Source: Candidatus Lokiarchaeum ossiferum
GTDB taxonomy: Archaea; Asgardarchaeota; Lokiarchaeia; Sigyniarchaeales; Promethearchaeaceae
Reading direction: 5' to 3'
DNA: 32,000 nt
NCBI GenBank assembly: GCA_025839675.1
Contig: CP104013.1
Location: 420,001 to 452,000 of the forward strand
Shown here one piece after another: positions 12,434 through 32,000 of this stretch. A program made the translations under genes and the position numbers. The notes under the pieces are model-generated. The model was not told where the DNA came from. It searched no databases and saw only the letters and a list, made by a program, of their open reading frames with translations. Position 1 is the first letter of the stretch. Each line of letters starts with the position of its first letter.

Positions 12434-12999
12434 TGAATATGAGTGAAGAGAAATCGAAGAAAGAAATTATTGCGGAAACCTTCCTTAAATTCTTTTTACA
12501 ACACGGAATGGTGCAGACAATTATCAATGATGTCGCTAAAGAACTCCACATGAGTAAAAAGACCATTTATAAGTATTTCCGTGGAGGAAAAGAAGAATGT
12601 CTTTACTTTATTTTTAGTAATATAGCCACAGAATCATTGAAACATTTGGAAAACGATTTGAATGACATTCCCGATCCCAAAGAAAAATTAATTTATAGCT
12701 TAAAACACATTTTTGGGTTGGCGGTTCCGTATGTTTTAGGTAACGCCGCAGAGAAAGAAGAAGATTTCTTACTTGAAAATCAAATCGTTGGGGAATCTTT
12801 TCGAGATGTTTTTCAAAATAAATTGAAAATGATCATTCATGAAGGAATTGAGAAAAAAGAATTTCATGTAAAGGACGTAGAACTATCATTTCATTTCATT
12901 TATGGAATAATTACTGAAAGCATGGTAGTTGTCCACCAGAATCCAAAGCGGAATATAGTAAATGAAGTGACCGAGGCAATATTAAAAATTTTGAAATAA
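12430..12999 (+). CDS. TetR/AcrR family transcriptional regulator
   Basis: HTH 'TIINDVAKELHMSKKTIYKYFRGGKEECL' followed by an all-helical C-terminal domain. GTG 12430, ATG 12433 and ATG 12439 are alternative starts. Overlaps the Lrp stop by 4 nt. Confidence 0.8.
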   Translation: MMNMSEEKSKKEIIAETFLKFFLQHGMVQTIINDVAKELHMSKKTIYKYFRGGKEECLYFIFSNIATESLKHLENDLNDIPDPKEKLIYSLKHIFGLAVPYVLGNAAEKEEDFLLENQIVGESFRDVFQNKLKMIIHEGIEKKEFHVKDVELSFHFIYGIITESMVVVHQNPKRNIVNEVTEAILKILK

Positions 13000-15863: not shown

Positions 15864-15872
15864 TTAAAAAAA

Positions 15873-16835: not shown

Positions 16836-16859
16836 TTTCTATATTACACCGAAATTTAC

Positions 16860-19388
16860 TTACATTTGATGGTTTTCACGAGCTATTAATTCATCCTGTA
16901 ATTCTTTTCCTATGGATGTGAAATAGGCATTATAACCTGTGACCCTAACTAGAAGATTTGCATAATTTTCGGGATGATGTTGAGCATCAATTAACATTTT
17001 TGCATCTAACATGTTGATCTGAAGAGCAGTTCCACCGTTCTCAATATAACCGCGAATATAGGCTTTAAATTTTTCTTTGTGCTCAGAATCACGCAGAAGA
17101 CTCGGATTGAAAGTTATTGTGTGTGAAGCACCATTTGGAAGGAAATTAATGTAATCCCCAGTTTCTGTTTTGCCTCCTAATGCATTACCCACCGAGTTTG
17201 TTACCGCAGTAGGACCTTTAGTATCTGCGCCATTGGTAGGACAAATAGCATTTGAAAGAAATGTCCCAGCTTTCCTCCCATTAGGTGTTGCAGGGGTAAA
17301 AGCAGCATCTTCTCCAGCCCAATAATTCCAAGAAAGCATGCCGGGTCTAAATTTATAGTTAGTTGGAGTAGTATACTGATAGGTTTCTTTAGACCAGAAC
17401 TCCATTGCTTCTCGTGCAATCTCATCCATTTCTGTCTCGTCGTTACCAAATTTCGGTGCCTTATTTGAGAGAATTGCTTGCATGATTTCATATTCCTTTT
17501 TGCCTTCAAAATTATTTATTAGAGCTTCTTTAATTTGAGCAAAAGAATATTTTTTCTCATCAAAAACATATTTTTTAATCGCTAAAAGCGAATCAACCAT
17601 AGTAGCAAAGGCGACACCTTCTATAGTTACAAATCCATATTTAGGAGGACCCGCATGTATATCAATGCCTTTTGAAATACAATCATCCATTAATATTGAT
17701 AAGTAAGGTACAGGAAGATATTTTGCGCGAGTTTCTTCACCTAAATTGTAAAAATCAACTGTATATTTGATAATATATTTAATCTGTTTTTTCCAAGCAT
17801 TGAAAAATTCATCCCATGATTGAAATGTCTCTGGATCTCCTGTTTCTGGACCAAATTGTTTTGATTCTTTATATTGTTTAAAAGTATTATCACCCATTAT
17901 ACGTTTAAAGCCTGGTTGATTTTTACCGTTCCATAATGTTAACTCAATACTTTTTGCGAGATTAGGATTACAATTAACGGTTCCTGATCGATCATTTCCG
18001 CACATTGTATTTTCAAGACATCCAACACATCCATAATCCCATACTTCATCTTTAGGAATACCTTCTTCCATTAATCCCGCCATACTACGTTCATCAAAGT
18101 TCAAAATGAAGGGAGCACCTTGTGCGCGGGTTATCATTTCAATAAGTTTATCGATTAATTTATCTGGTGAACCTCGGTGTAATCTCACATTGGGTTTTGG
18201 TTCTAAGATCGGAGCCCATTCGTCAAAACATTCTAAAATTAAATAAGTTAATTCATTGGTGAGATCCTCTCCTTTAGGTCCTAGTCCCGATAGAGTTATA
18301 AGTTGACCGAACCCAGCAGTAATTCCTTGATTTCCGATCTTAATTTGTGCATCATAAGCGGTGTTACAATGAAATATAAAGGAACTGAAAATATCTTTGG
18401 CCATATCTCGGGATAATGTTTGGTCTTCAAGCACATCCCTTTTATAAAGCGGCCATAAAATTTGATCAATTCGCCCAAAACTAAAACCAGGTCCAGGATA
18501 ACTTCCTTCGGACATGGTTAACATATGTGCAATCCAAATAGATTGAAGACTTTGCCAAAAGGTGGTAGCTGGTCCCCAAGGAACTTGCTTTAAATTTTCA
18601 TGCATCAATTTCAATTCTTCTTTTCTTTCTTCCGTAGATGCTGAAGCAAGTAAGTTTTCACATTCTTCCGCATATTTTACTGCCAAATCTCGAGGTAATT
18701 CCGCAGCAATCATCATCGCTCGTAGTTCAGAACCTTTAGATCCTTTTTTTTCAGAGTCGGAAAGTGCAGAGTAGGTTTTTTTTGCTTTATCATAAAGATA
18801 GGAAAACCCCTTTTCAACAACTGTTTTAAAATCTGGAATTATGTGTCCACCAGTTGCCCCTGCATTCCCAAAGCCTTCTTGGTGATAATGAAGAGCAGCA
18901 GTGCGATTTCTTAAATTTTCCTTTTCATAAATTTCATATTCTTTAGCATTCAGACATTTAGAGAGTTGTGTATTAAATCTTCCTCCCGCGAGTAAATCAT
19001 TTTCAGAAATTATCTCTTGAGGAATATAATCGACCATTACCATTTTTAAAAATGTAGCTCTTCTTTCAGGAAGGGAAAGATCCCAAAATTCTAAGGGTAA
19101 TTCTACCTTCTGTGCCATTTGAAGAAGTGAAAGGCCAAATAACCCTTTTCCCTTTACTCCCATAAATCCATAGACTTCTGGAACAATATGATAATCCCCT
19201 TCATTCCATACTCTATCTCCCCATGATGCCCCTGTTGTATAGGGAGAATATTCGTTATTCCATTTCCGATCATTTCCTTTAAAATAATAATCACGTAACC
19301 ATTTTGCTTTTGGAGAAAGATCATGGGATTGGGCAACCGAATATTGTGGTATATTTACTGAATTTGATTTTTTTTTTGTATCACTCAT
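16860..19388 (-). CDS. Glycyl radical enzyme, PFL2/dehydratase-lyase class, substrate unknown
   Basis: 842 aa. C-terminal glycyl-radical motif 'LLVRVTGYNAYF' (Gly818, codon 16935-16937). Cys loop 'YGCVGCLEN' (Cys454, Cys457, Glu459). Family-typical 'APKFGNDETEMDEIA' and 'NGADTKGPTAV' blocks. Confidence 0.9.
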   Translation of the reverse strand: MSDTKKKSNSVNIPQYSVAQSHDLSPKAKWLRDYYFKGNDRKWNNEYSPYTTGASWGDRVWNEGDYHIVPEVYGFMGVKGKGLFGLSLLQMAQKVELPLEFWDLSLPERRATFLKMVMVDYIPQEIISENDLLAGGRFNTQLSKCLNAKEYEIYEKENLRNRTAALHYHQEGFGNAGATGGHIIPDFKTVVEKGFSYLYDKAKKTYSALSDSEKKGSKGSELRAMMIAAELPRDLAVKYAEECENLLASASTEERKEELKLMHENLKQVPWGPATTFWQSLQSIWIAHMLTMSEGSYPGPGFSFGRIDQILWPLYKRDVLEDQTLSRDMAKDIFSSFIFHCNTAYDAQIKIGNQGITAGFGQLITLSGLGPKGEDLTNELTYLILECFDEWAPILEPKPNVRLHRGSPDKLIDKLIEMITRAQGAPFILNFDERSMAGLMEEGIPKDEVWDYGCVGCLENTMCGNDRSGTVNCNPNLAKSIELTLWNGKNQPGFKRIMGDNTFKQYKESKQFGPETGDPETFQSWDEFFNAWKKQIKYIIKYTVDFYNLGEETRAKYLPVPYLSILMDDCISKGIDIHAGPPKYGFVTIEGVAFATMVDSLLAIKKYVFDEKKYSFAQIKEALINNFEGKKEYEIMQAILSNKAPKFGNDETEMDEIAREAMEFWSKETYQYTTPTNYKFRPGMLSWNYWAGEDAAFTPATPNGRKAGTFLSNAICPTNGADTKGPTAVTNSVGNALGGKTETGDYINFLPNGASHTITFNPSLLRDSEHKEKFKAYIRGYIENGGTALQINMLDAKMLIDAQHHPENYANLLVRVTGYNAYFTSIGKELQDELIARENHQM

Positions 19389-19491
19389 TTAAATTCGCCT
19401 ATTAAAAAATTTTAAACGTCCCAAACTATACTATATATATCTAAGGATGTAGATATATTTATAGATATCCGAATTTTCAGCAAATGTTGGC

Positions 19492-19531
19492 ATGGAAACT
19501 CGGGTTTCCATTAGTAAACGGGAGTTTCCAT
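19492..19531. promoter_or_regulatory. Candidate operator: perfect 8-bp inverted repeat ATGGAAAC-TCGG-GTTTCCAT plus a third GTTTCCAT half-site 20 bp away
   Basis: ATGGAAAC at 19492-19499, GTTTCCAT at 19504-19511, GTTTCCAT again at 19524-19531. Each right half-site is followed by A/T then TAAAC. Lies about 105-140 bp upstream of the GRE start, in the 164-bp gap after the 206-aa gene. Confidence 0.4.
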
Positions 19532-19552
19532 AATAAACTAATATTGTGAAAA

Positions 19553-20173
19553 TTATTTTAAAAATGAGTAAATGTGATCAATCAGTTCTTGAGGTACTTT
19601 CATATTTTTATTCTTTATCCATTGTTTAAGATCTTCTGGGATAGTTACATCCAAATTGGCATTTGTAAAATCAGATTTTCGTTTATAAAAATGAAGAAAT
19701 CCATCTTCAACTTCTTCTATAAAAATTTGGCAACGGAAGTTTTCTTCAAACCACTTATTATATTTGTATTTTGCGCGTAATGGATCTTTATATAGACATT
19801 TATATTTTAAAACAAGATATATTTTTGTCTCATCTTGAATATCTTCTTCATATTTATTTGTAAACATTTTGGTTATTTGCTCTTTAGTCAAATTATTAAT
19901 TAATACATCTAAAAACTCAAATCCACGTGTTGAATATCGAAGATACTTATCTTTAGAGGAAAATATCAAGCGTAAAACAGGATTCGCATCAGTACCAATC
20001 CAAGTACAACTCAATTCTTTGGTTTTTTCAACCCGAACTTTTATGATCTCCAGAATTTCTTTAAAAGATAACTCTGTTTCTAATGTTTTGATAATTGAAA
20101 TATCTAAAAAAATGTTATTTTGATCCACATAAAATATTATTTTGGTGAACCTAAAAAAATTAGACTGTTTCAT
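19553..20173 (-). CDS. Hypothetical soluble protein (206 aa), overlapping the upstream ABC exporter gene
   Basis: ATG start lies 14 nt inside the end of the ABC gene (20160..20173 overlap). No TM segments and no recognisable motif. Lys/Glu/Tyr-rich. Confidence 0.5.
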   Translation of the reverse strand: MKQSNFFRFTKIIFYVDQNNIFLDISIIKTLETELSFKEILEIIKVRVEKTKELSCTWIGTDANPVLRLIFSSKDKYLRYSTRGFEFLDVLINNLTKEQITKMFTNKYEEDIQDETKIYLVLKYKCLYKDPLRAKYKYNKWFEENFRCQIFIEEVEDGFLHFYKRKSDFTNANLDVTIPEDLKQWIKNKNMKVPQELIDHIYSFLK

Positions 20174-21992
20174 CTATAGCGGGGTCTTCATCCCAATTTT
20201 CGATTTTTTGGATGAAATCATAAGATTGGTGCTTAAAATAGGTATTATAGAGATTTGAATAATGACCTCCTTTTTGCATTAGAGTATCGTGGTTCCCTTC
20301 TTCAACAATAGTCCCATGATCTAAAACAATTATTCGATCTACGTGACGAACGGTTCTTAAACGATGAGCGATGATAATTGAAGTTCGACCTCTCATCAAA
20401 TGTTCCATTGCTTCTTGAATTTTAGTTTCTGTAAATGGATCTACACTGGCAGTCGCTTCATCCAAGATTAATATAGATGGATTTTGCAAGAGAACACGAG
20501 CAAAAACCACTAATTGTCTTTGACCCATCGAAAGTAATTTACCCCGTTCTCGAATATTAGTATCAAGACCATCAACCAAATCATTAACCCAATCTGCCCC
20601 CCCTGCTTGCTCTAAAGCCCAAATTACATTTTCACGTGTTGCATTAGGTGAACCATATTTTACATTATTTTCAAGTGTATCAGCCCAAAGGAAGGGAGAC
20701 TGGGGGATCATTCCAATAAATCTTCGGTATTCTTTCAAAGAAATGTCACGGATATTTTTCCCATCAACTATTATATTTCCTTTTTGAAATTCATAAAAAC
20801 GAAGTAATAATCGTGCTAAACTGGATTTACCCGCTCCTGTATGGCCCACTATTGCAATTGATTCTCCTGGTTTGATGTCCAAATTGAAATTTTGAAAAAT
20901 TGGCTTTTCAGGCTCATAATAGAATGACATATCTTCAAATTGCAAATGACCATCCAATTTTTCAAAAACAAATTCTTCTTTCTGAATTACCGCAGGTTTA
21001 CTATCAATAAGTGCAAAAGTCCTTTCTGCTGCAGCCATCCCAGTTTGAAATTGAGGCCAAAATGCAGCGATTTGAAAGAGTGGGAAGAAAAGATTCCATA
21101 AACTTTGAATAAATAAATAAAGATCTGCACCTTGTAAACTTCCGAAAAGTATAGAATCCCCTCCAAAATAGATTAAACAAGCGAATGTAACACCTTGAAT
21201 TATGCTTAATCCGGGAAAGATGAGATTCATATACATAGCCCTATTAAAATTGACTTTGAAGCATTGTTTATTTATTTTCTTGAATTCATCATATAATTTT
21301 TCTTCTTGTCGGAAAGTTTTTGCAATCTGAATTCCTGCCATTGTCTCTTGAACAAAAGAATTAACCGAAGCCAGAGCTCTTTGTCCCAGTAACGTTTTTT
21401 TCCGAGCTACTTTTCGAAAAGATAGCGTGAAAATGAAGATCAATGGAATCATGATTAAAAGAACGGAAGTTAAACGAAAATCGATCGAAAACATTGGCAC
21501 AAATAAAATAAAGACGGCTAATAGTGCCGAGATGGACTGAATAAATAGCAGAGCCATCTCACCAAAACTTTGGGTATCAGAATTTACTCGACTAACGATT
21601 TTTCCAGTTGGATATTTATCAAAGAAAGACATATCTTGAATTAAAACATTATTGTTGACATCAGTTCTCAAATCATAAATAACATGGTTGAGAACTCTGG
21701 CAGAATAGTATTGATTTATCCAATTAAATACCCAAACAAAAGTATTTAAAATAAAGATAAGGACAATTCCAAAAGTGATCGCAGAAAAATCCAAACCATC
21801 TTCAAGGCTTGCGAGAATTTTACTCGTAAAATAAGGAATAATTCCATTCGAAATTGAAGCAAGCAATATGAAAATAGTCACAATTACCATTTTTTTTTTA
21901 TGTAATTTAAAATAATCCAGAATACGAATCATTAGTTCCTTATCAGTGTATTTTCGATCGTATTCTTCAGCTTCTAGTCCAAACCAAACCAT
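20160..21992 (-). CDS. ABC exporter permease/ATPase fusion (type I exporter half-transporter), consensus-ATPase subunit
   Basis: Six-TM N-terminal domain. Walker A GHTGAGKSS, Walker B ILILDEATASVD with the catalytic Glu, H-loop IIAHRL. The signature is atypical, LSMGQRQ. Confidence 0.9.
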   Translation of the reverse strand: MVWFGLEAEEYDRKYTDKELMIRILDYFKLHKKKMVIVTIFILLASISNGIIPYFTSKILASLEDGLDFSAITFGIVLIFILNTFVWVFNWINQYYSARVLNHVIYDLRTDVNNNVLIQDMSFFDKYPTGKIVSRVNSDTQSFGEMALLFIQSISALLAVFILFVPMFSIDFRLTSVLLIMIPLIFIFTLSFRKVARKKTLLGQRALASVNSFVQETMAGIQIAKTFRQEEKLYDEFKKINKQCFKVNFNRAMYMNLIFPGLSIIQGVTFACLIYFGGDSILFGSLQGADLYLFIQSLWNLFFPLFQIAAFWPQFQTGMAAAERTFALIDSKPAVIQKEEFVFEKLDGHLQFEDMSFYYEPEKPIFQNFNLDIKPGESIAIVGHTGAGKSSLARLLLRFYEFQKGNIIVDGKNIRDISLKEYRRFIGMIPQSPFLWADTLENNVKYGSPNATRENVIWALEQAGGADWVNDLVDGLDTNIRERGKLLSMGQRQLVVFARVLLQNPSILILDEATASVDPFTETKIQEAMEHLMRGRTSIIIAHRLRTVRHVDRIIVLDHGTIVEEGNHDTLMQKGGHYSNLYNTYFKHQSYDFIQKIENWDEDPAIDETV

Positions 21993-21993
21993 T

Positions 21994-23826
21994 TTAATTA
22001 TTCTCCTCCAATAATTCTTCTAAAGTTTTATCAAAACGTGTTAAAAAGATTTTTCTATATTCCTCTGAGGTTTTCAATAAGTGTTCATGGGAACCTTGTG
22101 CAACAATTTTACCAAGCCGAAAGACAATAATTTTATCCGCCCACCGAATTTGACTCAATCGGTGAGTAATTAAAAGCGTTGTTCTTCCTTTGAGAATGCG
22201 GGAAATTGCCCTTTGAATATTTTCTTCCGTTGCAGAATCAATTGCTGAAGTAGAATCATCTAAAACCAAAATTTTAGGATCCGAAATAAAAGCGCGAGCG
22301 ATTGCAATTCGTTGACGTTCTCCCCCACTCAATTGAACACCACGTTCTCCGACATTAGTATCGTATTGTTTTGGTAACTTTAAGATAAATTCATGAGCTT
22401 GAGCATCCTTTGCGGCTTTAATTACTTCTTCTTTACTTGTTACTCTCCCAAAAGCGATGTTTTCAAAAATACTTTTGGAAAACAGAAATATATCTTGCTC
22501 AATGTATGCAATTTGATTGCGAAGAGAATGCAATTCATAGTCTTTAATATCAATACCATCTACTAATATTTGACCTTTAGGTACGTCATATAATCTTGAA
22601 ATTAATTTTGTGCAAGTTGTTTTTCCCGATCCTGTTGTCCCAACAATAGCAATTGTTTCACCAGCCTTAGCTGAAAATGAAACACCTTTCAGAACCAGAT
22701 TCTCGGTCCTAGGATAAGAAAAAAACACTTCTTTAAATTCAATATCTCCACTAATATTCTTTTTAATGGAATTATCCATTTGAACAATTTCTGAAGATTT
22801 ATTCATTGTATCCAGTAGTCTATCAGCCCCCGCTATCGCACGTTTTACTAAAGCAAAAGCCCATATTGATATTCGTGTTGGAAAATAAAGTGTCAAAATC
22901 AACCCCATATAACCAATGATCTCATAGACCTCCATTTCACCTCTTTGTTGGAGAATAATTGCGTAAACAAGACTTAAAGTTATTGTTATAGCAACCATAA
23001 GAAGAGGAAAATATCGAGCTTGAATTTGTCCTTCCTTAACTCCAATTTCAAGGTATTTTTTTGCTTGCTTTTGATATAACCGAATTGAACGTTTTTCTTG
23101 AGCCATGCCTTTTATAACTTCTATTCCAGATAATGATTCATTAAGGATGGCGTTAAGATTGCCATATTCCATTTGCTTAGCTTGAACTACTGGCCCTAAA
23201 CTATTAACATACTGTTTTAAAGCAACAACAAAGAGTACACTATAGATTGAAGGGATTATAGCCAATCTTGGGGAGTAAATTAAGGCAACCATGACAATCG
23301 GTACGATTGTATTAATAACCGATTCAAAAATTAGTGATATACCGGGACTAATTAAAAAATTTAATTGACGGACGTCATTTGTTGCTCTAGCCATTATATC
23401 CCCCAGTCTTTGTTCATCATGGAATGATTGACTTTTTCCTAATAAATTTAAATATAGTTCATTTCGAGAATCCCGTTCCATCCGTTGTGCTAATATTTCA
23501 CGGAGAACATTTCCCAATAAATCTAATAAAGGTGAACCTATTCCTAATAGCAAGATTAAAACGGAGTAAAATATCAAATCTTGAGTGTTTCCGGCAGTAA
23601 AAGACCCAATTGCTTCTCCTAAATATACTTTCACCCGGGCATAAACAATTGCCGAAAAAATTGTTAAAATGACCCAAGAAAAGATAAAAATTTTATTATT
23701 TCTATATAATAGATGTTTTAATATCCAAACATAGGTTTTTTTTTGACGTGCTTCATAAAAATCATCATTAGTTGGCTTAAATTCTAGATGATTCAAATTT
23801 CTGCTAGTTTCTACTTGTTTTTGCAC
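21994..23826 (-). CDS. ABC exporter permease/ATPase fusion (half-transporter), degenerate-Walker-B subunit
   Basis: Walker A GTTGSGKTT and canonical signature LSGGERQ. Walker B is ILVLDDSTSAID, with Asp replacing the catalytic Glu. H-loop LITHRL. 1-bp gap to the partner gene. Confidence 0.9.
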   Translation of the reverse strand: MQKQVETSRNLNHLEFKPTNDDFYEARQKKTYVWILKHLLYRNNKIFIFSWVILTIFSAIVYARVKVYLGEAIGSFTAGNTQDLIFYSVLILLLGIGSPLLDLLGNVLREILAQRMERDSRNELYLNLLGKSQSFHDEQRLGDIMARATNDVRQLNFLISPGISLIFESVINTIVPIVMVALIYSPRLAIIPSIYSVLFVVALKQYVNSLGPVVQAKQMEYGNLNAILNESLSGIEVIKGMAQEKRSIRLYQKQAKKYLEIGVKEGQIQARYFPLLMVAITITLSLVYAIILQQRGEMEVYEIIGYMGLILTLYFPTRISIWAFALVKRAIAGADRLLDTMNKSSEIVQMDNSIKKNISGDIEFKEVFFSYPRTENLVLKGVSFSAKAGETIAIVGTTGSGKTTCTKLISRLYDVPKGQILVDGIDIKDYELHSLRNQIAYIEQDIFLFSKSIFENIAFGRVTSKEEVIKAAKDAQAHEFILKLPKQYDTNVGERGVQLSGGERQRIAIARAFISDPKILVLDDSTSAIDSATEENIQRAISRILKGRTTLLITHRLSQIRWADKIIVFRLGKIVAQGSHEHLLKTSEEYRKIFLTRFDKTLEELLEENN

Positions 23827-24061
23827 TTTTCCACCACAGTTTTTAAATGATTAGTTAATGGTCAATTAGGATTGAATTAAAAAGCTAACTCCTATTGATA
23901 ATAATAGCTTACTTAATGAAAATTGATGAATAAAAATTTCGATTTGAGTTTATTAAGATTGCCCCATTTCTTGAATACTGTTAGAAAATTTTCAACAATT
24001 TGTTCATATTCTCATTAAAACTAAAACATTTATGAAAAAGGAGGTTTTTCAAATTATTCAA

Positions 24062-24071
24062 ATATTTATAA
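24062..24071 (+). promoter_or_regulatory. TATA-like box upstream of cheY
   Basis: ATATTTATAA is centred about 30 bp upstream of the cheY ATG (24097). This fits an archaeal TATA box with a very short or absent leader. Position-based inference only. Confidence 0.3.
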
Positions 24072-24096
24072 GATTTGTGAAGAAAGTTGATAGAAA

Positions 24097-24462
24097 ATGG
24101 CTAAAATTTTAATTGTTGATGACGCGAAATTCATGCGAAACATATTGGTGAAAATTTTGACAGCAAATGGTCATCAAATAGTCGGAGAAGCAGATAGTGC
24201 GAATGAGGGAATAGAAAAATTTAAAGAACTATCTCCAGATTTGGTTACTATGGATATTTGCATGCCCGATAAAAGTGGTATGGAAGCGATTAAGGAAATT
24301 ATCGAAATTGATCCCAATGCAAAAATTGTGGTATGTTCTTCACTTGGACAAGAATTGATGGTTATGGAAGCAATTCAAATGGGGGCAAAAGACTTTATTG
24401 TAAAACCATTTAAAAAAGAAAAACTCGCAGAAATGATCAACAAAATCGTTCAAGAACCATGA
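24097..24462 (+). CDS. cheY: Chemotaxis response regulator CheY (stand-alone receiver)
   Basis: 121 aa. Acidic pocket 'ILIVDDAKFMR', phospho-acceptor context 'LVTMDICMPDKSG', 'VVCSS' and 'VKPF' (conserved Lys). The length and the FMR/MPxxxG pattern are CheY-like. Confidence 0.9.
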   Translation: MAKILIVDDAKFMRNILVKILTANGHQIVGEADSANEGIEKFKELSPDLVTMDICMPDKSGMEAIKEIIEIDPNAKIVVCSSLGQELMVMEAIQMGAKDFIVKPFKKEKLAEMINKIVQEP

Positions 24463-24487
24463 ATTAATTATAGAAGAATGATTAAAA

Positions 24488-25144
24488 ATGGAACCTGAGA
24501 AAACACCTAGCAACCTATCCAAAAAAGATGTGTATATAAAAAATTTAGATATTTTCAGAGAATTAGGAAACATTTGTGCTGGGGGGGCTGGAAATATATT
24601 ATCAAAATTGATAAAAAAGAAAATTTATTTTGATATACCACCTGCTAAATATTTATCAATTTCCCAAATAATTAAAGGGAGATTGATTGAAAATCAAAAA
24701 CAAATGTGTTTACATGGTACAATAAAAGGTTTCTTTCAGGGTAAGATTTTTTTAATGACTCCTATTGATGAAACAGAAATTCTTCTTGAAAATTTATATA
24801 AAGTAAAAAAAAAGGCAGAAATTAAAAAAAATCAGAATTTTAATTCAAATGACAACCAAATACTTCATAATTTTTTTAAAAAGCTTATCAATGCATATAC
24901 TGATGCTTTAGCGAGTTTTCTACAAGTTTCATTAATGTTTGATGAGGAACAATTTATAACAAAACAAGGTTCTGATTTCAAATCTTGTGTTGCTTCAACC
25001 ACAGATGAAGAACTAAACAAGGCGATAACTATAGAGACAACAATCAAAGTTGAAAATGAAGAAATAATCCACTGCAGCTTCTTGTTTATTCTAGGATCAA
25101 GTGAAGTTGATACGATTTTAAATCGAATTGAAGAAATATGGTAA
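24488..25144 (+). CDS. CheC-family (CheC/CheX/FliY-like) CheY-P phosphatase homolog with a single intact active-site motif
   Basis: Residues 21-51 'DIFRELGNICAGGAGNILSKLIKKKIYFDIP' fit D/S-X3-E-X2-N-X22-P exactly by hand count. The second pseudo-repeat (FFKKLINAYTDALASFL...) lacks the Glu and the Pro. Confidence 0.7.
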   Translation: MEPEKTPSNLSKKDVYIKNLDIFRELGNICAGGAGNILSKLIKKKIYFDIPPAKYLSISQIIKGRLIENQKQMCLHGTIKGFFQGKIFLMTPIDETEILLENLYKVKKKAEIKKNQNFNSNDNQILHNFFKKLINAYTDALASFLQVSLMFDEEQFITKQGSDFKSCVASTTDEELNKAITIETTIKVENEEIIHCSFLFILGSSEVDTILNRIEEIW

Positions 25145-25171
25145 GATACATAGATTAAAAAAAATTTTTAG

Positions 25172-25789
25172 ATGAAAATAATGAAACGAAAACCTTTAGA
25201 ATTACCTAAACAAATTGAAAAGATCCCATACTATTGTTCTGTATGTGCAATGACACATGTTGTCCAAATTCGGAAAGAAAATTTACAAGGAAAACACTTT
25301 CCCATTTCCTATGTATATATTCACGGAAATCCTCAACTAGCAACTGTTCTTTATATAGACAAAGATTTACAAGTCCGTGGATACGAAAATGTGAAAGGAA
25401 TTGGTATAAACTCAGATCAATTAGATGAAATTCTGCATGAATCCCGTTTTAATACCTTAAAAAGAATTCCACTATCATCCATCTTAGCCTTTCGCCTCTT
25501 TCAAAATGAAGATATAAAAAAAATGTATGTAAAAAAGGGGTTTGAAAATTCGATTAATTTTGATGCCATCTCAAACTTAATAAGCGATACTCAAAAAATA
25601 ACACATAATTTCGAAATGTGTAGCGATTTTTATATGAAATTCAATGATTATTGGATTGGAGCATTGCAATTATTGGATTTTCGATTTATTATGATTGTAT
25701 CTTCCGATATTGATGTGGATCATTTAAAGTTTCAAATTATGAATTTGTTTGAAATATTCTCTGCAAACTATAAAACTAAGGATGTATGA
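25172..25789 (+). CDS. Uncharacterised protein, paralog A (CX2CX3H-X21-H N-terminal module plus a C-terminal alpha/beta module)
   Basis: 205 aa. Aligns gap-free with the next gene. Conserved blocks are FP[IV]SY..[IV]HGNPQ, LYIDK...VRG, IGIN.DQL.EI, IKK.Y.K.GFE, WIG and ID[VI]DH.KFQ.M..FE. Confidence 0.6.
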   Translation: MKIMKRKPLELPKQIEKIPYYCSVCAMTHVVQIRKENLQGKHFPISYVYIHGNPQLATVLYIDKDLQVRGYENVKGIGINSDQLDEILHESRFNTLKRIPLSSILAFRLFQNEDIKKMYVKKGFENSINFDAISNLISDTQKITHNFEMCSDFYMKFNDYWIGALQLLDFRFIMIVSSDIDVDHLKFQIMNLFEIFSANYKTKDV

Positions 25790-25792
25790 GCC

Positions 25793-26377
25793 ATGGATGA
25801 TAAATTTAGTGTCTTAACAGAACAGATAATAGAAACAATGTTTTTTTGCAATAAATGTCAAGAAAATCATTGGGTGCAATTACCAAAATCTCTTTTTAAT
25901 ACGAAATCTTTTCCAGTTTCCTATGCTTTTGTACACGGAAATCCTCAGATCATCGCAATTTTATATATCGATAAAAATCATACAGTAAGGGGAGTTGAAT
26001 ATCCTAAGCAAATTGGAATTAATCGAGATCAATTATCTGAAATTATTGATAAAAGTAAAAGTCAAACTTTTTCTTCAATCCCAGAAGATTTAATCTATGC
26101 ATTCGAAGTGATTGCTGAAGATAAAATTAAAAAGATCTACTCAAAGCAGGGCTTTGAACAAATCGTTAACTTTTCAGCAATTAGAGAAATGATCACCCTT
26201 ACCCCAAATTTTGTTAAAACAAAAGAATCTTTCAGAGAATTCTTTATTAAATATAGCGATTGTTGGATTGGAGGAATGGAATTGTATGATCACTACTTTA
26301 CAATGGTAGTTGATGCATCAATTGATATTGATCATTTTAAATTTCAAATGATGGCAATGTTTGAATCTTTAATTTGA
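25793..26377 (+). CDS. Uncharacterised protein, paralog B of the preceding gene
   Basis: 194 aa with a 3-bp intergenic gap. 78 of 175 positions are identical to paralog A in my ungapped hand alignment starting at the first Cys. Confidence 0.6.
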   Translation: MDDKFSVLTEQIIETMFFCNKCQENHWVQLPKSLFNTKSFPVSYAFVHGNPQIIAILYIDKNHTVRGVEYPKQIGINRDQLSEIIDKSKSQTFSSIPEDLIYAFEVIAEDKIKKIYSKQGFEQIVNFSAIREMITLTPNFVKTKESFREFFIKYSDCWIGGMELYDHYFTMVVDASIDIDHFKFQMMAMFESLI

Positions 26378-26401
26378 AAGATTCAGAGAGACGAGTTTCA
26401 C

Positions 26402-27544
26402 ATGGGAACATATCATTATATTAATCTAACACATTTCACAGATCCTTTTGACTTTTTACCACTACTTTCTCAATTATCGGAATCAATTAAAAATCCTTTT
26501 GTAAAAATTAATAGAATAATTTTTTCCAATTTTGCCACAGCGCGACAATTTTTAGAACAAATATCAGATACCCCGTGGAAAACCCAAACTCAAGATATTA
26601 TTCCAAAATGCGACCAATGTAACACAGATTTGGATAAAAATATAGACGAAAATCAAGTCGAATCACAGATTTCAATAAAAGCACCCAAAATAATAACTTC
26701 TAATGAGAGTGCTTATGAAATTGAACGAGTTTTACGCATTTTCGGAGAATATCAATCTACAATTAAGACCGAAATATTATGTTCAGATACTTCTGAGGCG
26801 CTTGACACTATGAAATATTTTTTGCAAGATAAATTCCCCGATCTTTGTTTAACAACTCCCATTCGTTGCTCACTCGTTCATAATGAATTCGAAATCGATA
26901 CAACAAACAATAAAAAGACAAGAAAAAAAAATCGAAAGCCACCGGCACCCTTTCAAAGATTTCTAAAAATATCCGCCCCACACCTTTATCCAAATTCTAT
27001 TGGAAATGACTATTATGGGAATCCTGTGTTTTCTTCCTATCTCACTTTGTTTAATAATATGCTTTCACCTTCTCTTTCTGAAAATGCATCCTATACTGAA
27101 ATAGAACAGAAAATTGAGCAATTTGACCAAATTCCCCTTCCTCCTTCCCCTTTAAAATATTATGATCTGCAAACGAAGGAAGGAGAAATTGAATTGCGGT
27201 TTCAGACTTATTTACCCCTCCCATTGTTTATGGATTGGATGAATGTGCTAAAAAGAATAATAGATCAATTTGATCAATCCCTCGAAATGTTCCGATGTTC
27301 TCTGGTTTATGATCATTGGGAAACAGAACTAGAACAGAAATCGGCGAAATTGGATCGTTTCTTTTTCTCTTGGAACGATATAGAATTTGCTTATACCGAA
27401 AAAAATTATCTATTTTTATCTCAATTTTCTGCAAAACCAGGATCTGGCGCACTTTATCTCAAATTGACACCTTTCATTGAAGATTCCGATTTTCGAATTC
27501 AACTTCTCGAATCTGCTACTAAACAAAAACTTCAGCTCATGTAA
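26402..27544 (+). CDS. Hypothetical protein (380 aa), no recognisable family
   Basis: Long ORF co-oriented with a 24-bp gap in the cheY operon. Central basic/Pro-rich linker 'NNKKTRKKNRKPPAPFQRF' and 'IPLPPSPLKYY'. No TM segments or catalytic motifs recognised. Confidence 0.55.
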   Translation: MGTYHYINLTHFTDPFDFLPLLSQLSESIKNPFVKINRIIFSNFATARQFLEQISDTPWKTQTQDIIPKCDQCNTDLDKNIDENQVESQISIKAPKIITSNESAYEIERVLRIFGEYQSTIKTEILCSDTSEALDTMKYFLQDKFPDLCLTTPIRCSLVHNEFEIDTTNNKKTRKKNRKPPAPFQRFLKISAPHLYPNSIGNDYYGNPVFSSYLTLFNNMLSPSLSENASYTEIEQKIEQFDQIPLPPSPLKYYDLQTKEGEIELRFQTYLPLPLFMDWMNVLKRIIDQFDQSLEMFRCSLVYDHWETELEQKSAKLDRFFFSWNDIEFAYTEKNYLFLSQFSAKPGSGALYLKLTPFIEDSDFRIQLLESATKQKLQLM

Positions 27545-27582
27545 AAAATTTAAACGGTGACCCCTTTCCAATATCATATAAA

Positions 27583-29016
27583 ATGAGTTTAGAAGAAGAA
27601 AAACATAATCGGTTTAAAAAAGGACAAATGCTAATAAAAAAGGCTCAAAAGTTTATTTTAAAAAAGAGATATTCTAAAGCTCGCGAGTTATTGTATGAAG
27701 CGCAAGAAATTTTTGAATTTACTGAATCTTCACTTACTGAAGGTAAAGTTTTTGCTTCAATTGCTGAAACTTTTGAGATACAACACATGTGGGACAATGC
27801 ATTGAAATTTTATCAAAATGCACTAGAAAAACGAAAGATTGCAGGAAGTGTTATTTTATTATCGGAAACGCACCGTAAACTGGCAATAGTTCAAATGGAG
27901 TTAAAAAATTTTGAAATGGCCCATGCATCCGCTCAAAAATCGATTGATTTGGTAGAAAATCTTGAACATCCATTATCGAAAGCAGAAGCCTTTCATACCC
28001 AAGGGATAATTTATTTAAAGGAATTAGATTATGAAAGTGCTCTTTTTTATGAAAATTTTGCGTATGAAAATGTCCAGATACAACTATCATGGAATTTAGC
28101 CTTGGATATTTTTGAGAATTTAGCCTTTATCCACTATAATATTGGAGATTATTCCCAATCTAATATTTTTTGCAAGAAAGCCCTTGAAATGGAGCAAAAA
28201 CAGAGAAATTATGTTGTTATCAGCACTATTTTGGAATTGATGGCATTAAATTATCGACTCTTAGGTAAAATTGATCAAGCTTTAACATACATTAAAGATG
28301 CGCTTTCAATACAAGCCCATTTAAATCCAGATATAGCCTTAAAACAAAAAAACAAAATGAAATTAAATTACGCTACAATTCTTTTTGACTGTCACAAATT
28401 TTCAGAAGCAGAAATAATTGCTGAAGAACTTATTGAACAAGCGGAACTATCCCAAGATTCAGAACAATTAGTGCAAGGGTTACTCGTTATGGTCAAAATA
28501 ATTATGGCTTTACCAACTCATGAAGAATTTAGTAATACTAAACATTATTTAGAAGAAGCGAAGAAATTAGCTCATACTCTAAAAAATCAGGAATATTTAA
28601 CTGAAATTTATATATATTATGGTAGATATTATGATTTGTCTTCAGAAAGGCTTAAAGCGGAAGAAATGTATCAATTGGCGATCGATACCGCAATGATATC
28701 ACAATCAAAATTGAAAATTGGAGAGGCATTTGAACAATTTGGTTTATATTTTCACAAACATAAAAAAATGGAATTGGCTCATACCAACTTCAAGCAAGCG
28801 GTTCAATATTTGTCAAAGACACACAATAATATGGATTTAGCAGAAGCTCATTATAATTTAGCTTGTACTTGTTCAGTTTTACATTTAGGAGAAGATATTT
28901 TGACACATCTTTCCCAAGCAATCAATTTGGATCCAAAATACAAACAGATTGCCAAAATGGATGAAGATTTTACAGGAATTTCAACACAAGAAGTATTTCG
29001 CAATCTTGTTGAATAA
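27583..29016 (+). CDS. Tetratricopeptide-repeat (TPR) protein
   Basis: 477 aa, all-helical, with repeated 34-residue-type units carrying the A/Y/L pattern. Examples: 'AEAFHTQGIIYLKELDYESALFYENFA', 'LMALNYRLLGKIDQALTYIKDAL', 'AEAHYNLACTCSVLHLGEDILTHLSQAINLDP'. Confidence 0.8.
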   Translation: MSLEEEKHNRFKKGQMLIKKAQKFILKKRYSKARELLYEAQEIFEFTESSLTEGKVFASIAETFEIQHMWDNALKFYQNALEKRKIAGSVILLSETHRKLAIVQMELKNFEMAHASAQKSIDLVENLEHPLSKAEAFHTQGIIYLKELDYESALFYENFAYENVQIQLSWNLALDIFENLAFIHYNIGDYSQSNIFCKKALEMEQKQRNYVVISTILELMALNYRLLGKIDQALTYIKDALSIQAHLNPDIALKQKNKMKLNYATILFDCHKFSEAEIIAEELIEQAELSQDSEQLVQGLLVMVKIIMALPTHEEFSNTKHYLEEAKKLAHTLKNQEYLTEIYIYYGRYYDLSSERLKAEEMYQLAIDTAMISQSKLKIGEAFEQFGLYFHKHKKMELAHTNFKQAVQYLSKTHNNMDLAEAHYNLACTCSVLHLGEDILTHLSQAINLDPKYKQIAKMDEDFTGISTQEVFRNLVE

Positions 29017-29026
29017 ACTTTACTCA

Positions 29027-29036
29027 TTTTTTATTT
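29027..29036 (+). terminator. Oligo-T tract after the TPR gene, likely end of the cheY-to-TPR transcription unit
   Basis: TTTTTTATTT starts 11 nt after the TAA stop at 29014-29016. Confidence 0.35.
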
Positions 29037-29135
29037 ATAGATCCTACGTTGTAATTCATGCTATTAGTGAATTAATAAATTGGAAGACCGAAGCTAAAGC
29101 AATAAATACCGTTACTTTCAGAAGCTGTTCGAGAA

Positions 29136-29151
29136 AATTGGACGTCCAATT
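29136..29151. repeat. Perfect 16-bp palindrome AATTGGACGTCCAATT
   Basis: Read directly: AATTGGAC / GTCCAATT is self-complementary with no spacer. It is flanked by an unusually G+C-rich patch (tcgcgctgcgc) in otherwise A/T-rich noncoding DNA. Confidence 0.6.
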
Positions 29152-29195
29152 CGCGCTGCGCTTATTTTATTAACACATTATTAAAAACTATCTGA

Positions 29196-29546
29196 TTTTT
29201 GTCGGTTTTTCATATTTGTCACCCAAGAAAAACTTCCCATTTCTTCCAAAATCGAATCAAATCCAAGTTCCGACATTAATTAAAAATTGTGATATAATGA
29301 AGTTTTATGATATGTGGAAAATAGATAATTATTTTGTCGAATTAATTCTTGCGACTTAAACCGCTAGCTTTTAGTATTGATCTATTTTTGTCGAATATTG
29401 TCGAAGCTGGAGATCTTCACTTCCAAATTGCGGTAATTGTTCCTCGGTTTTTCACTTGGTCCCTTAAATATCCAACTATACTTTGATTATAATAGAATCA
29501 AAATCATGATATCCCAATCTTATACTCATCTGATTCCGATGTCGAA
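29196..29546 (+). repeat. Cluster of same-strand TTGTCGAA-type motifs in noncoding DNA
   Basis: Exact TGTCGAA at 29335-29341, 29389-29395, 29399-29405 and 29540-29546. The middle two form a 10-bp-period tandem, TTGTCGAATA|TTGTCGAAGC, at 29388-29407. Variant TTTTTGTCGG at 29196-29205. Three copies are preceded by a T-run. Confidence 0.6.
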
Positions 29547-29591
29547 GAGATTGATTAAAAAAATGTGAATAATTATCTTTGGAGATAGTAT

Positions 29592-29608
29592 GGGGATGTG
29601 TGATCCCC
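29592..29608 (+). other. G+C-rich hairpin GGGGAT-gtgtg-ATCCCC followed by TTTATT, about 37 nt upstream of the mini-ORF ATG
   Basis: Stem GGGGAT (29592-29597) pairs with ATCCCC (29603-29608) around a 5-nt loop, with a T-rich tail. It could be a leader structure or a terminator-like element. Confidence 0.35.
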
Positions 29609-29644
29609 TTTATTCCCATTGTTTAATGTGTGTGTGAAGCAAAA

Positions 29645-29944
29645 ATGTCAATGTATAGAAAGTATCTTTTAAAGAAAAACTTCTGGGCTCAACCCAAGAA
29701 GGACGGGAGCGATCCCAGCTGCTATGTGAAACATGATATACGAACAGGGGGAATTTATGCCTACGTTCAACATCGCGGAGTTAAAATCGTAGCCGATAAT
29801 AAATCTAAAGAATTTAGTAACTTTAATGAACTCGATCAATATTTAGATCAGCTTTCCATGTCTACTCGCGAAGATACCACTCAATTCATGCAAGTGTTAA
29901 ACCGTCGCAACTCGTCCAAAATGCTCCGAAAAATAACCATTTAA
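29645..29944 (+). CDS. Small hypothetical protein (about 99 aa) with atypically high G+C; coding status uncertain
   Basis: The ORF track starts at GTG 29630. ATG 29645 (MSMYRKYLLKK...) is more plausible. My hand count gives 57/120 G+C in 29681-29800 versus 12/60 in 30061-30120. No family recognised. Confidence 0.4.
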   Translation: MSMYRKYLLKKNFWAQPKKDGSDPSCYVKHDIRTGGIYAYVQHRGVKIVADNKSKEFSNFNELDQYLDQLSMSTREDTTQFMQVLNRRNSSKMLRKITI

Positions 29945-30045
29945 TCAATTGTAAACAAAACTCCGCTAAAAGAACTTAAGTAATCCTTACTTTTTTATTC
30001 CTAAGTTTTCAAATTTAATTAAACTCAAGAAGGTCACTGTTCTCT

Positions 30046-30888
30046 ATGAAACATATTTGGATTATCAATAAATTTTCATCTACAAATTTACTTTATCGGA
30101 ATTATTCTGATTTTAGTATCGATCCTGATTTGGTTAGTGGTTTATTGACTGCCTTAAACTCCTTTTCAGAAGTTGAACTTAAAGCTCATGGAATTTCCTC
30201 GATACATATGGGTGGTTTAAAGTGGGTATATTCAGATCAAAAAGAAATGCATCTAATGCTGATTGCTGCAGATAAAATTGAAGCTCAAACTGAAGTCCTT
30301 CGGGCTCGTTTAGAGGTAATCTTCAAAATGTTCATTGAGAAATATGGAATTATCCCTGAACAAATGGAAAAAACCTTAATTGATTCGGTCCGCTTTGATG
30401 ATTTTGCCGAAGAATTGGATTTATTAAAAGCCCAATGGATACAAGCAGAAGAAATAATCACAGGGGGAGCCGCAAAAATATTTGATCTTTTAGGCGTTTT
30501 TCAGCAGATCTACTCGGCTTTCAATAATATTATTCGACTTAACTTTTTCCAAGCAGATTACGATAATACGGTTATCGAAATAAAAATGATATTGGAAAAT
30601 ATGAAGGGAACCCCAGAATTCAAAAAATATCCCGAATTGTCAAAAATTAAATTTGATAAATATGGATGGGATGTAATTAACTTAAACCCAACGAATTTGG
30701 ATGAAAAAGTTCTGGCACGAATCTTAATTATGTTAACCCTCCATTTAAACAATATTCTTACAACGAAATTAAGTAGATCGTCAAAATATAATGCGTATTC
30801 CAAAGAAATCTTTCCATTATTGCTTGAAAAATATGATCTACTCGTTTCATTGGATATTTTGCATACTTTAATGCGAGTTTTTTTGTAG
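30046..30888 (+). CDS. Protein with an N-terminal longin/roadblock-like alpha-beta domain and a helical C-terminal region
   Basis: The first about 105 aa show a beta-beta-alpha-beta-beta-beta-alpha pattern: IWIINKFSSTNLLYRNY / DPDLVSGLLTALNSFSE / ISSIHMGGLKWVYSDQ / HLMLIAADK / EVLRARLEVIFKMFIEKYG. This is typical of archaeal longin/roadblock-like proteins. The fold call is from sequence pattern only. Confidence 0.5.
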   Translation: MKHIWIINKFSSTNLLYRNYSDFSIDPDLVSGLLTALNSFSEVELKAHGISSIHMGGLKWVYSDQKEMHLMLIAADKIEAQTEVLRARLEVIFKMFIEKYGIIPEQMEKTLIDSVRFDDFAEELDLLKAQWIQAEEIITGGAAKIFDLLGVFQQIYSAFNNIIRLNFFQADYDNTVIEIKMILENMKGTPEFKKYPELSKIKFDKYGWDVINLNPTNLDEKVLARILIMLTLHLNNILTTKLSRSSKYNAYSKEIFPLLLEKYDLLVSLDILHTLMRVFL

Positions 30889-31040
30889 AACGAAGATTCA
30901 AAATAAAAAATTCTGAAATTTCATGATTTGGTTTCCCAAACTAGTTTTTTTTTTTGAAAATTTCATGCAAATTTTATGGATTTTTCATGAATTTTTTTTT
31001 AACACTAAGGGATAAATTCCTTTTTGTGCAAAAATCACAT

Positions 31041-31772
31041 ATGAGTAGCATGCTAGATGGTTCCATAAAACTAGTAATATTCGAATTGGCATCGGAAGAA
31101 TTTGGAGTAGATATCCACAAAATTAATTCTACGGTCAGAATGCAAGAAATTATCAAAGTACCCAATGCAAATGCGTTTATTGAAGGTATTTTAGATTTTA
31201 GAGGTACACCTTTGCTCGTCATAGATCTTCGTAAGAAATTTGGACTGTCAACTGAGGCTAAAAACATAGAAAATATGCGAATTTTGATCATTGAGTTTCA
31301 ACCGCATAAAATCGGTTTTATAGTAAATGCAGTTACTGAGGTTAAACAAATCCCCTTTAATACCATAGAACCCGTTCCATCAAATATTTTAACTGATGAA
31401 CTAGAAGAAAAGTATTTGCTAGGGATAAGCAATTTAGAAAAAGGCGAGCGATTAATTTTAATGCTAGATCTAGCGAATATGTTTTCACCGCCAGAAATTG
31501 ATGAACTCAGTCGTCTACTCAATGATCAAGAGTTTTTGCAAAATTGTCTAAGAACTGGATTAGAAGAAATGAAAATCTATGATGAACAAACCGCCTCCAC
31601 ATTTGATCAAGAACATCGTAAAAAAATTGAATCTAAAATAGAATCAAATGATTCGAACAAAATAATTGAAGATAATATCTCAACTGAACGCAAAATTGTA
31701 CAAAAATTGGCAGTGAAAGAAATAGAAGACGAATTACAATTATCTATTAACTATAGCGACGAAGAAGAATAA
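31041..31772 (+). CDS. cheW: Chemotaxis coupling protein CheW with a long acidic C-terminal tail
   Basis: CheW-domain pattern 'LVIFELASEEFGVDIHKINSTVRMQEIIKVPNANAFIEGILDFRGTPLLVIDLRKKFGL ... ILIIEF..HKIGFIVNAVTEV'. The ATG at 31041 (MSSMLDG...) is preferred over the TTG at 30954. About 100 residues of E/D/K/S-rich tail follow the domain. Confidence 0.85.
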   Translation: MSSMLDGSIKLVIFELASEEFGVDIHKINSTVRMQEIIKVPNANAFIEGILDFRGTPLLVIDLRKKFGLSTEAKNIENMRILIIEFQPHKIGFIVNAVTEVKQIPFNTIEPVPSNILTDELEEKYLLGISNLEKGERLILMLDLANMFSPPEIDELSRLLNDQEFLQNCLRTGLEEMKIYDEQTASTFDQEHRKKIESKIESNDSNKIIEDNISTERKIVQKLAVKEIEDELQLSINYSDEEE

Positions 31773-31790
31773 GACAATGAGGTACCTGAA

Positions 31791-32000
31791 ATGAGTAATA
31801 TAACTGATAATGGTGAAAATTCGGAAGACATAGTCGATGTTCTTCAATATCAAGAAGAATTAGAATTAGATGATGAAGAAATTGAAGAGATAACACATAA
31901 TCAAGAACAAAATAAAACGGTTTTATACATAACAATAACATTACAACCCGAAACCGAATTGAAATATACACGCGCATATCTATGTTTAAAAAAAGTTCGA
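31791..32000 (+). CDS. Partial ORF (runs off the window): acidic N-terminus followed by a CheA-P2-like beta-alpha segment
   Basis: ATG at 31791, 18 nt after the cheW stop, open to nt 32000 (70 codons, no stop). 'LYITITLQPETELKYTRAYLCLKKV' resembles the P2-region pattern I recall from Thermotoga and Bacillus CheA ('FYIKVILKEGTQLKSARIYLVFHKL'). No HPt (P1) domain precedes it. Confidence 0.35.
   Translation, partial: MSNITDNGENSEDIVDVLQYQEELELDDEEIEEITHNQEQNKTVLYITITLQPETELKYTRAYLCLKKVR

Follow-up and report, generated by a model that had tools for sequence, protein, structure and literature searches.

Which genes of a small chemotaxis (che) locus in Candidatus Lokiarchaeum ossiferum belong to the chemotaxis system, and could any of them carry its signal to an output? 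The locus occupies positions 24097-32000 of a 32-kb stretch of contig CP104013.1 (GenBank assembly GCA_025839675.1, positions 420,001 to 452,000 of the forward strand), which was analyzed at its full length and is called the window throughout; here cheY, cheC, cheW and the beginning of cheA share the plus strand with six uncharacterized genes. A preliminary description of the region proposed that four to six of these genes had replaced the che core and together formed a CheY-linked output or adaptor module. For two tandem paralogs, which we call X1 and X2, the proposed link to che holds, and we place a probability of about 0.55 on the reading that they are a CheY-linked Roadblock heterodimer acting in che output. 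For the other four (a 380-aa gene, a tetratricopeptide repeat (TPR) gene, a 104-aa gene and a 280-aa gene) it does not, and among the six unknown genes only X1 and X2 are truly che-linked. The region is composed of two che sub-clusters (cheY-cheC-X1-X2 and cheW followed by a cheA without a P1 domain) that flank an older, che-independent block of four genes.

X1 (NEF87_000400, 100% identity) is encoded at 25172-25789 on the plus strand and X2 at 25793-26377 on the same strand, starting 3 bp downstream of X1; the two proteins are 44% identical (E 4e-58). Neither matched any Pfam family at E <= 1, X1 had no match in NCBIfam at E <= 0.1 (the NCBIfam scan covered all of the window proteins considered here except X2), and no match to X was found in PADLOC. 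At the same Pfam threshold none of nine window proteins matched CheF-arch/DUF439 or ArlCDE, nor did any of the eight scanned against NCBIfam at E <= 0.1. A word-index search with the first paralog returned three close relatives only, and an exhaustive hidden Markov model (HMM) search of 1.84 billion cluster representatives returned 131 matching X-family proteins, about 30 of them full length (about 200 aa) and about 100 matching through an N-terminal domain of about 70 aa only. All named full-length representatives are from Promethearchaeota, and a search for related loci with a narrower X alignment recovered 2 loci only. We found no prior description of the X family, which is undescribed.

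The gene neighborhoods of X homologs carry the argument for a che connection. In the window and in its close congener (L009) the order is cheY-cheC-Xa-Xb, where a and b denote the first and second gene of a pair, and L015, a further che locus obtained from the window's sequencing sample, reads MCP-cheW-cheY-cheA(Hpt)-CheW/CheC fusion-Xa-Xb (MCP, methyl-accepting chemotaxis protein). A single X gene stands near the end of a long operon in L013/L014/L022, cheA-...-CheW/CheC-cheR-cheB-cheD-cheC-X-response regulator-Ras-family GTPase, with gaps of 24-37 bp, and near the head of another in L018/L019, small longin protein-X-MCP-cheW-cheY-cheB-cheA-cheD. The order cheR-small longin protein-X is found in L012, X adjoins a REC-domain gene on a 2-kb contig (L023), and L016/L017 carry the bare triplet cheY-Xa-Xb with no other che gene within 4-10 kb. 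Altogether, che genes adjoin X in at least six of eight independent contexts. By a rough estimate this adjacency is far beyond chance, since che genes make up well below 1% of an Asgard genome and are present in just 27 of 97 metagenome-assembled genomes (MAGs) (PMC9834061).

Two of these contexts hold further small proteins of note. At L018 3907-4431 and L012 746-1153, the stand-alone proteins directly upstream of X carry an 'L(V/I)(A/S)GFFSAI' motif. They show a distant relationship to one another and, by hhalign (E 6e-5 and 9e-4), to the predicted longin domain of the 280-aa protein encoded in the window. X itself was considered as a possible relative of the 280-aa family, and hhalign of the two families showed no relationship.

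How X1 and X2 relate to each other is suggested by a neighbor-joining tree, in which, across the four pair-bearing loci, all first genes fall in one clade (a) and all second genes in another (b), making X1 a-type and X2 b-type. Separate a and b clades imply an old duplication after which the order a-then-b was retained, as would be expected for an obligate heterodimer, and they suggest that X1 and X2 form one.

The predicted structure of X1 (AlphaFold2, 18-sequence alignment, predicted local distance difference test (pLDDT) score 83.4) has two domains. Residues 15-78 are modeled as a five-stranded beta-domain in which C22, C25, H29 and H51, near-invariant across the family, may form a metal site. 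Residues 81-197 are modeled as an alpha-beta-beta-alpha-beta-beta-beta-alpha domain, with helices at 81-94, 130-143 and 182-197 and strands at 104-111, 114-120, 150-156, 160-167 and 170-177. Foldseek gave probabilities of about 1.0 (E 1.8e-4 to 5e-3) for matches of the X1 model to Ragulator LAMTOR subunits, MP1/p14, Mon1-Ccz1, Fuzzy-Inturned, the longin domain of VAMP7 and solved structures of Asgard Roadblock proteins, and we therefore predict a Roadblock/LC7 fold for the C-terminal domain of X1 and X2. This agrees with an earlier hint, drawn from Roadblock/longin-type folds in the region, toward small-GTPase partners. No Robl_LC7 or longin profile in Pfam matched X at E <= 1, and the X family HMM found nothing among PDB sequences. 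The N-terminal domain of about 70 aa (CxxC...HG...LYID...RG) is absent from Pfam and confined to Asgard archaea, where about 100 further protein clusters carry it in fusion with longin, Roadblock, ubiquitin-like or V4R domains or with TPR arrays (P0036-P0143, e.g. P0074, P0037 and P0047). The window's own TPR protein, considered as a relative of the TPR proteins that bear this domain, is not specifically related to them.

Taken together, these observations lead us to propose that X1 and X2 would form a Roadblock heterodimer resembling MP1/p14 or LAMTOR2/3, a step that we favor somewhat over its absence. From synteny, the dimer would work directly with CheY or phosphorylated CheY (CheY-P), while a single-site CheC would reset CheY, which we hold to be slightly better than an even bet; the minimal cheY-Xa-Xb unit argues for such a direct connection to CheY. 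How the signal would leave the dimer is a more doubtful matter. The Roadblock fold and the one operon of the form CheC-X-response regulator-Ras GTPase point to small-GTPase regulation, and by analogy the dimer might serve as a platform, GTPase-activating protein (GAP) or guanine nucleotide exchange factor for a small GTPase of the Ras/Arf type, a tentative step to which we give rather low odds. More speculative still, and in our judgment improbable, is that Lokiarchaeial che systems may signal not, or not only, through a rotary archaellum, and may act through X1/X2 and longin proteins on Ras/Arf-type GTPases and actin protrusions.

Several observations weigh against this proposal. The likeness between X and Roadblock proteins exists at the level of the fold only, and both the CheY-X and the X1-X2 interactions are predictions from synteny and the clade pattern. 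Full-length X occurs in L020/L021 with no che gene in the 1 kb upstream, where the contig ends, or in the 10 kb downstream, and a relative with only the C-terminal domain of X sits in an apparent mobile element. A GTPase is operonic with X in only one of the eight contexts. Asgard genomes encode very many small GTPases, and the proximity of one of them to the present locus, 4.3 kb past cheA, may be coincidental; this GTPase shares just 26% identity with that of the L013 operon and is probably not its ortholog. Finally, L. ossiferum encodes homologs of Arch_flagellin (archaellin) and of FlaI/TadC, leaving a motor-directed output equally possible.

That last point leads to the rival in which X1 and X2 are a CheF-like adaptor that, without any GTPase, docks CheY-P to the motor of an archaellum or type IV pilus. 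A linkage of X to che genes is equally expected here, the motor homologs just named are encoded in the genome, the CheF-arch domain occurs in none of the retrieved Lokiarchaeial che operons and 'CheF' is absent from the examined part of the L. ossiferum annotation table (PMC9834061). However, an archaellum or pilus gene lies beside X in none of the eight contexts, Pfam at E <= 1 reveals no relation of the X sequences to CheF or ArlCDE, and Roadblock is typically a GTPase-regulatory or scaffold fold, so that we regard this explanation as unlikely. The position of X directly after a CheC gene or CheC-like domain in the window, L013 and L015, and ahead of an MCP gene in L018, would instead fit an accessory of the array or of the adaptation branch, such as a CheC partner or regulator in the manner of CheD, or a scaffold of the array, with no part in output. 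This would be hard to reconcile with the cheY-Xa-Xb triplet of L016/L017, which has no CheC, MCP, CheW or CheA within 4-10 kb, or with the separate CheD present in both L013 and L018, and we rate it as less likely than the CheF-like adaptor.

There is also the possibility that all of the unknown genes, X1 and X2 included, are unrelated neighbors and that the cluster is a functionless, decayed che remnant; the cheA gene lacks P1, the CheC protein has lost one active site, and independence from che has been shown for four of the six unknown genes. Even so, X and che genes adjoin one another in most of the contexts described above despite che genes making up far less than 1% of the genome, the phospho-acceptor residues of CheY and the ATP-binding boxes of CheA are intact, and the congener L009 has kept the window arrangement with proteins 58-89% identical in amino acid sequence. 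We strongly disfavor the idea of decay and think it very improbable.

The reading of X1 and X2 as a CheY-linked heterodimer can be set against known systems in which some of its elements occur. Dimers of Roadblock and longin proteins classically serve small GTPases as platforms, examples being Ragulator and Mon1-Ccz1 in eukaryotes and MglB in Myxococcus. In Myxococcus xanthus, the Frz chemosensory pathway acts on a polarity module made up of MglA (a Ras-like GTPase), MglB (its Roadblock GAP) and RomR-RomX. The likeness lies in Roadblock proteins tied to a Che-type pathway and response regulators, with a Ras-like GTPase as the target (proposed, in the case of X), and one X operon even has the composition CheC-X-response regulator-Ras GTPase. 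MglB differs in being a homodimer encoded with mglA outside the che operon, whereas X is an a/b pair in che loci; X also has the extra N-terminal Cys/His beta-domain, shares no sequence-level homology with MglB and has a GTPase partner that is a candidate only. The best structural matches of X1 are Ragulator LAMTOR2/3 (MP1/p14) and Asgard Roadblock proteins (PDB 5Y3A, 1VEU, 7YH1, 9JUE and 7F8M; E 1.8e-4 to 3e-3 over about 120 columns), with which it shares its topology and an occurrence as paired paralogs that is suggestive of a heterodimer, but identity is 9-15%, no profile matches, X carries its additional domain of about 70 aa, and a che-operon context has been reported for none of these proteins.

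An archaeal counterpart in function would be CheF (Pfam CheF-arch/DUF439), the adaptor between CheY-P and the ArlCDE archaellum switch (PMC7534055, PMC9126983). Both CheF and X are archaea-specific and CheY-linked, have their genes in che operons and belong to a lineage from which the bacterial FliM target is absent; they differ in that X has no CheF-arch match, the 50 best Foldseek matches of X1 include no CheF chain, and no arl genes lie near X.

The cheY gene (24097-24462, plus strand) encodes a single-domain response regulator of 121 aa (Pfam Response_reg E 2.3e-29; best NCBIfam match CheY_Halo, E 2e-36) in which D8/D9, D53, S81 and K103, read by eye, are all present, and which is 65% identical to the CheY proteins of the X-bearing loci L015 and L016. 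The following gene (24488-25144, plus strand) encodes a 218-aa homolog of CheC-family CheY-P phosphatases. Its initial Pfam score was modest (CheC family, E 5.8e-4), and full-length matches establish it as a true member of the CheC family: residues 18-214 align to positions 6-199 of the 201 in NCBIfam CheC_Thtogales (E 4.8e-16, 59 bits vs. an equivalog cut-off of 250 bits), and the CheC structures 1XKR/2F9Z are matched over their full length (E 4.4e-8). The first active site, D21-x3-E25-x2-N28-x22-P51, is intact, and the second aligns to 1XKR as Q/N/K where CheC has S/E/N and is degenerate. Within the CheC/CheX/FliY group the protein thus has the architecture of CheC and keeps the first D-x3-E-x2-N-x22-P motif, but has one site, as CheX does; by analogy with CheX, one site could suffice.

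The second sub-cluster begins with cheW (30987-31772, plus strand; Pfam CheW E 1e-29), whose product has a C-terminal acidic tail of about 95 aa; its start is taken from the gene call on contig L001, the reading frame being open from a TTG at 30954. L001 is a 167-kb assembly contig that also contains the window sequence and makes a further 7 kb past the window end readable. An open reading frame (ORF) beginning 18 bp past the cheW stop codon and cut off by the window end had been noted for its CheA-P2-like start, and it is indeed the 5' end of a cheA gene (31791-32000, plus strand) that continues as L001 14209-15837. The complete product of 542 aa has the domain order P2-P3-P4-P5 (Pfam P2 1.3e-14, H-kinase_dim 1e-12, HATPase_c 1.5e-13, CheW 8.7e-23), with the N, G1 and G2 boxes of the kinase present when read by eye. 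No Hpt/P1 domain was matched in it by Pfam at E <= 1, and NCBIfam CheA_Halo is matched only over model positions 144-666. Such a CheA is predicted to be unable to autophosphorylate, that is, to accept a phosphoryl group itself. Because the kinase core is kept without P1, the protein would presumably phosphorylate the Hpt domain of another CheA in trans or act as a scaffold that binds CheY through P2.

A precedent for the former is found in Rhodobacter sphaeroides, where CheA3 and CheA4 are a split kinase and CheA4 lacks P2. As in that system, a P1-less CheA with an intact kinase core would act on an Hpt domain in trans, and by this analogy the window CheA probably needs the Hpt of another CheA; it differs from CheA4 in keeping P2, and its trans-partner is a candidate only, namely the Hpt-bearing CheA of L015, a locus placed in the same genome solely by the shared sample.

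No MCP, CheR, CheB, CheD, CheF or Hpt domain was found by domain scans in the 8 kb of the locus, as the preliminary description had it, nor within the flanking 24 kb upstream and 7 kb downstream, the latter gained by extending the contig. The conclusion drawn from this, that the che core had been replaced, does not survive a look at the rest of the genome, in which MCPs, cheB, cheD, cheR and an Hpt-bearing cheA exist elsewhere. L. ossiferum has been reported to encode 15 MCPs, cheA/B/C/D/R/W/Y and putative chemoreceptor arrays, its annotation table containing one cheA ortholog group with an Hpt domain (PMC9834061). The window locus is a secondary, partial or accessory che locus. Sensitive searches likewise gave the uncharacterized proteins no assignment to CheF, CheD, ArlCDE, Hpt or a defense system (Pfam, NCBIfam with the coverage given above, and PADLOC), consistent with the initial impression that they belong to no known che accessory family.

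The four remaining genes were part of the proposed CheY module, and here the comparison with other genomes speaks plainly against it. All four occur in the same order and on the same strand in L006, a 375-kb Lokiarchaeial contig, and in L008, a MAG contig that covers the same stretch as L011, and neither cheY, cheC, X, cheW nor cheA is encoded on the stretches retrieved there (for L006, about 10 kb before the block and 4 kb after it; for L008, 4 kb and 0.1 kb). Only the close congener L009 repeats the window's combination of block and che genes. From this order in two Lokiarchaeia contigs without che genes, and from the presence of the 280-aa protein in Prometheoarchaeum syntrophicum, whose strain MK-D1 is reported to have no che genes (PMC9834061), it follows that the four genes are not a CheY module; a lack of such synteny with che was what the preliminary description itself had said would refute its hypothesis. 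The present arrangement would have arisen by insertion of che genes next to the block, or else other lineages would have lost the che genes that once flanked it.

The first gene of the block (26402-27544, plus strand; NEF87_000402, 100% identity) encodes the 380-aa protein, a member of a Lokiarchaeia-restricted family with about 10 homologs, whose neighborhoods were retrieved; a profile search of genome contigs recovered 2 loci only. The family shares an invariant basic patch, KKxKKRTRKPPAPFQRFLKKKAP, and a LPLPPSPLKYYDLQ motif. Its profile found nothing among PDB sequences, and the protein had no match in Pfam, NCBIfam or PADLOC; the AlphaFold2 model (pLDDT 75, predicted template modeling score 0.78) had no credible Foldseek neighbor in the PDB (TM < 0.22). 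In L006, L008 and L009 it likewise forms a pair with the TPR gene; the coordinates of the tight pair are 26402-29016 in the window, 9938-12446 in L006 and 4016-7000 in L008. The TPR gene (27583-29016, plus strand) encodes 477 aa (Pfam TPR_12 E 4.4e-22; NCBIfam TPR end-of-group domain E 6e-16), and its orthologs come directly after the 380-aa homolog, at a distance of 43 bp in L006 and 93 bp in L008.

The third gene (29630-29944, plus strand, with a likely start at ATG 29645) encodes a conserved small protein of about 99-104 aa that is 64% identical to an ORF of L006 and 51% identical to one of L008 in the same relative position and has no Pfam, NCBIfam or PADLOC match. It had been described as a G+C-rich mini-ORF, which was overstated; its GC content is 38%, compared with 32% for the window. 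The last gene (30046-30888, plus strand; NEF87_000405, 100% identity) encodes the 280-aa protein, which is predicted to have a FUZ/MON1/HPS1-type longin domain in its N-terminal part and helices in its C-terminal half. Its match to Pfam Fuz_longin_1 is below the gathering score (E 0.0035), three of 21 family members match that model (best E 7.7e-5), and the family profile weakly matches the MON1 longin domain among PDB sequences (E 0.09). The family has 87 homologs across Promethearchaeota, including P. syntrophicum DSAG12_02561; those in L006 and L008 are 47-49% identical to the window protein.

As for the transcription of the locus, ORF coordinates bear out the tight plus-strand unit that had been described, with six ORFs at 24097-24462, 24488-25144, 25172-25789, 25793-26377, 26402-27544 and 27583-29016, separated by gaps of 25, 27, 3, 24 and 38 bp, and a T-tract that had been placed after the TPR gene is present as T6 at 29027, 11 bp past the stop codon. 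A T6 tract also follows the 104-aa gene and a T11 tract follows the 280-aa stop codon. These oligo-T tracts suggest that the region is transcribed as four units: one running from cheY to the TPR gene, one each for the 104-aa and 280-aa genes, and one for cheW-cheA. A sigma-70 promoter and terminator scan gave what is expected of shuffled sequence, the sigma-70 model being irrelevant for an archaeon.

The intergenic region of 628 bp between the TPR gene and the 104-aa gene (29017-29644) had been called repeat-rich. This was overstated in that a repeat search found only short two-copy matches, at chance level, but the region does contain a true cluster of three exact TTGTCGAA copies within 72 bp, with no other exact copy in the 32-kb window. 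TTTGTCG(AA) motifs are located at 29198, 29333, 29387 and 29398 (span 29198-29405), with a one-mismatch copy at 29539, and TTTGTCG occurs in the equivalent intergenic regions of L006 (3 copies, 12611-12744) and L008 (1 copy, 11382). Aligned with these counterparts, the gap is essentially noise except for the TTTGTCG motif, and the cluster upstream of the 104-aa gene may be a conserved cis-regulatory site. No Rfam family was found in the intergenic region, and an Rfam scan of 23700-32000 gave as its sole match a chance-level small nucleolar RNA inside the TPR gene.

The genome and the presence of che genes in it are already published, with the uncharacterized window proteins annotated as hypothetical. 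Full-text searches of the literature found nothing combining Asgard, Roadblock, GTPase and chemotaxis, and nothing on CheF in Lokiarchaeota. A link between the longin superfamily and phosphorelays is already known in general, from the NPRL2-like longin domains fused to two-component domains that Liu et al. described in Asgard archaea; the presence of a Roadblock pair in che operons adds a new form of this link. Traveling with cheY, X1 and X2 offer a concrete, expressible candidate for the missing output link of Asgard che systems, and the family could show how a bacterial-type sensory pathway was joined to eukaryote-like signaling parts. If a chain from che through Roadblock proteins and a GTPase to actin were real, it would mean that, in the closest relatives of eukaryotes so far cultured, a prokaryotic Che front end is coupled to a back end of GTPase and cytoskeleton that is eukaryote-like. 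L. ossiferum is among the few cultured Asgard archaea and shows an actin cytoskeleton (PMC9834061). The negative result for the block is useful in its own right, as it spares four conserved, unrelated genes from being annotated as chemotaxis components.

Several minor observations concern the surroundings of these loci. Past the window end by 3-5 kb, downstream of cheA and on the opposite strand, are an actin-family gene (Pfam Actin; L001 18811-19932, minus strand) and the small GTPase gene mentioned above, of the Arf/Ras/Roc type (L001 20143-20712, minus strand). In the complete che operon of L013, a 181-aa protein (5990-6535) has a sub-threshold match to gelsolin repeats (E 0.0024), and the operon ends with X, an atypical 155-aa response regulator and the Ras-family GTPase (10655-11659; E 2e-30), such that the gelsolin-like protein and the GTPase are eukaryotic-signature-like components embedded in a che operon. 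The relative with the Roadblock half of X only is a 265-aa protein (L024 6864-7661, L025 3919-4716), and its stretch of DNA, with many short unannotated ORFs and an N6/N4 DNA methyltransferase, resembles viral or other mobile DNA from an Asgard host. Upstream of cheY, the minus strand of the window (14976-23826) encodes a pyruvate formate-lyase-like glycyl-radical enzyme (842 aa), its radical-SAM (S-adenosylmethionine) activase and an ABC (ATP-binding cassette) exporter gene pair. The exporter pair also lies beside the 380/TPR block in L006 and L009 and is a long-range synteny marker for it.

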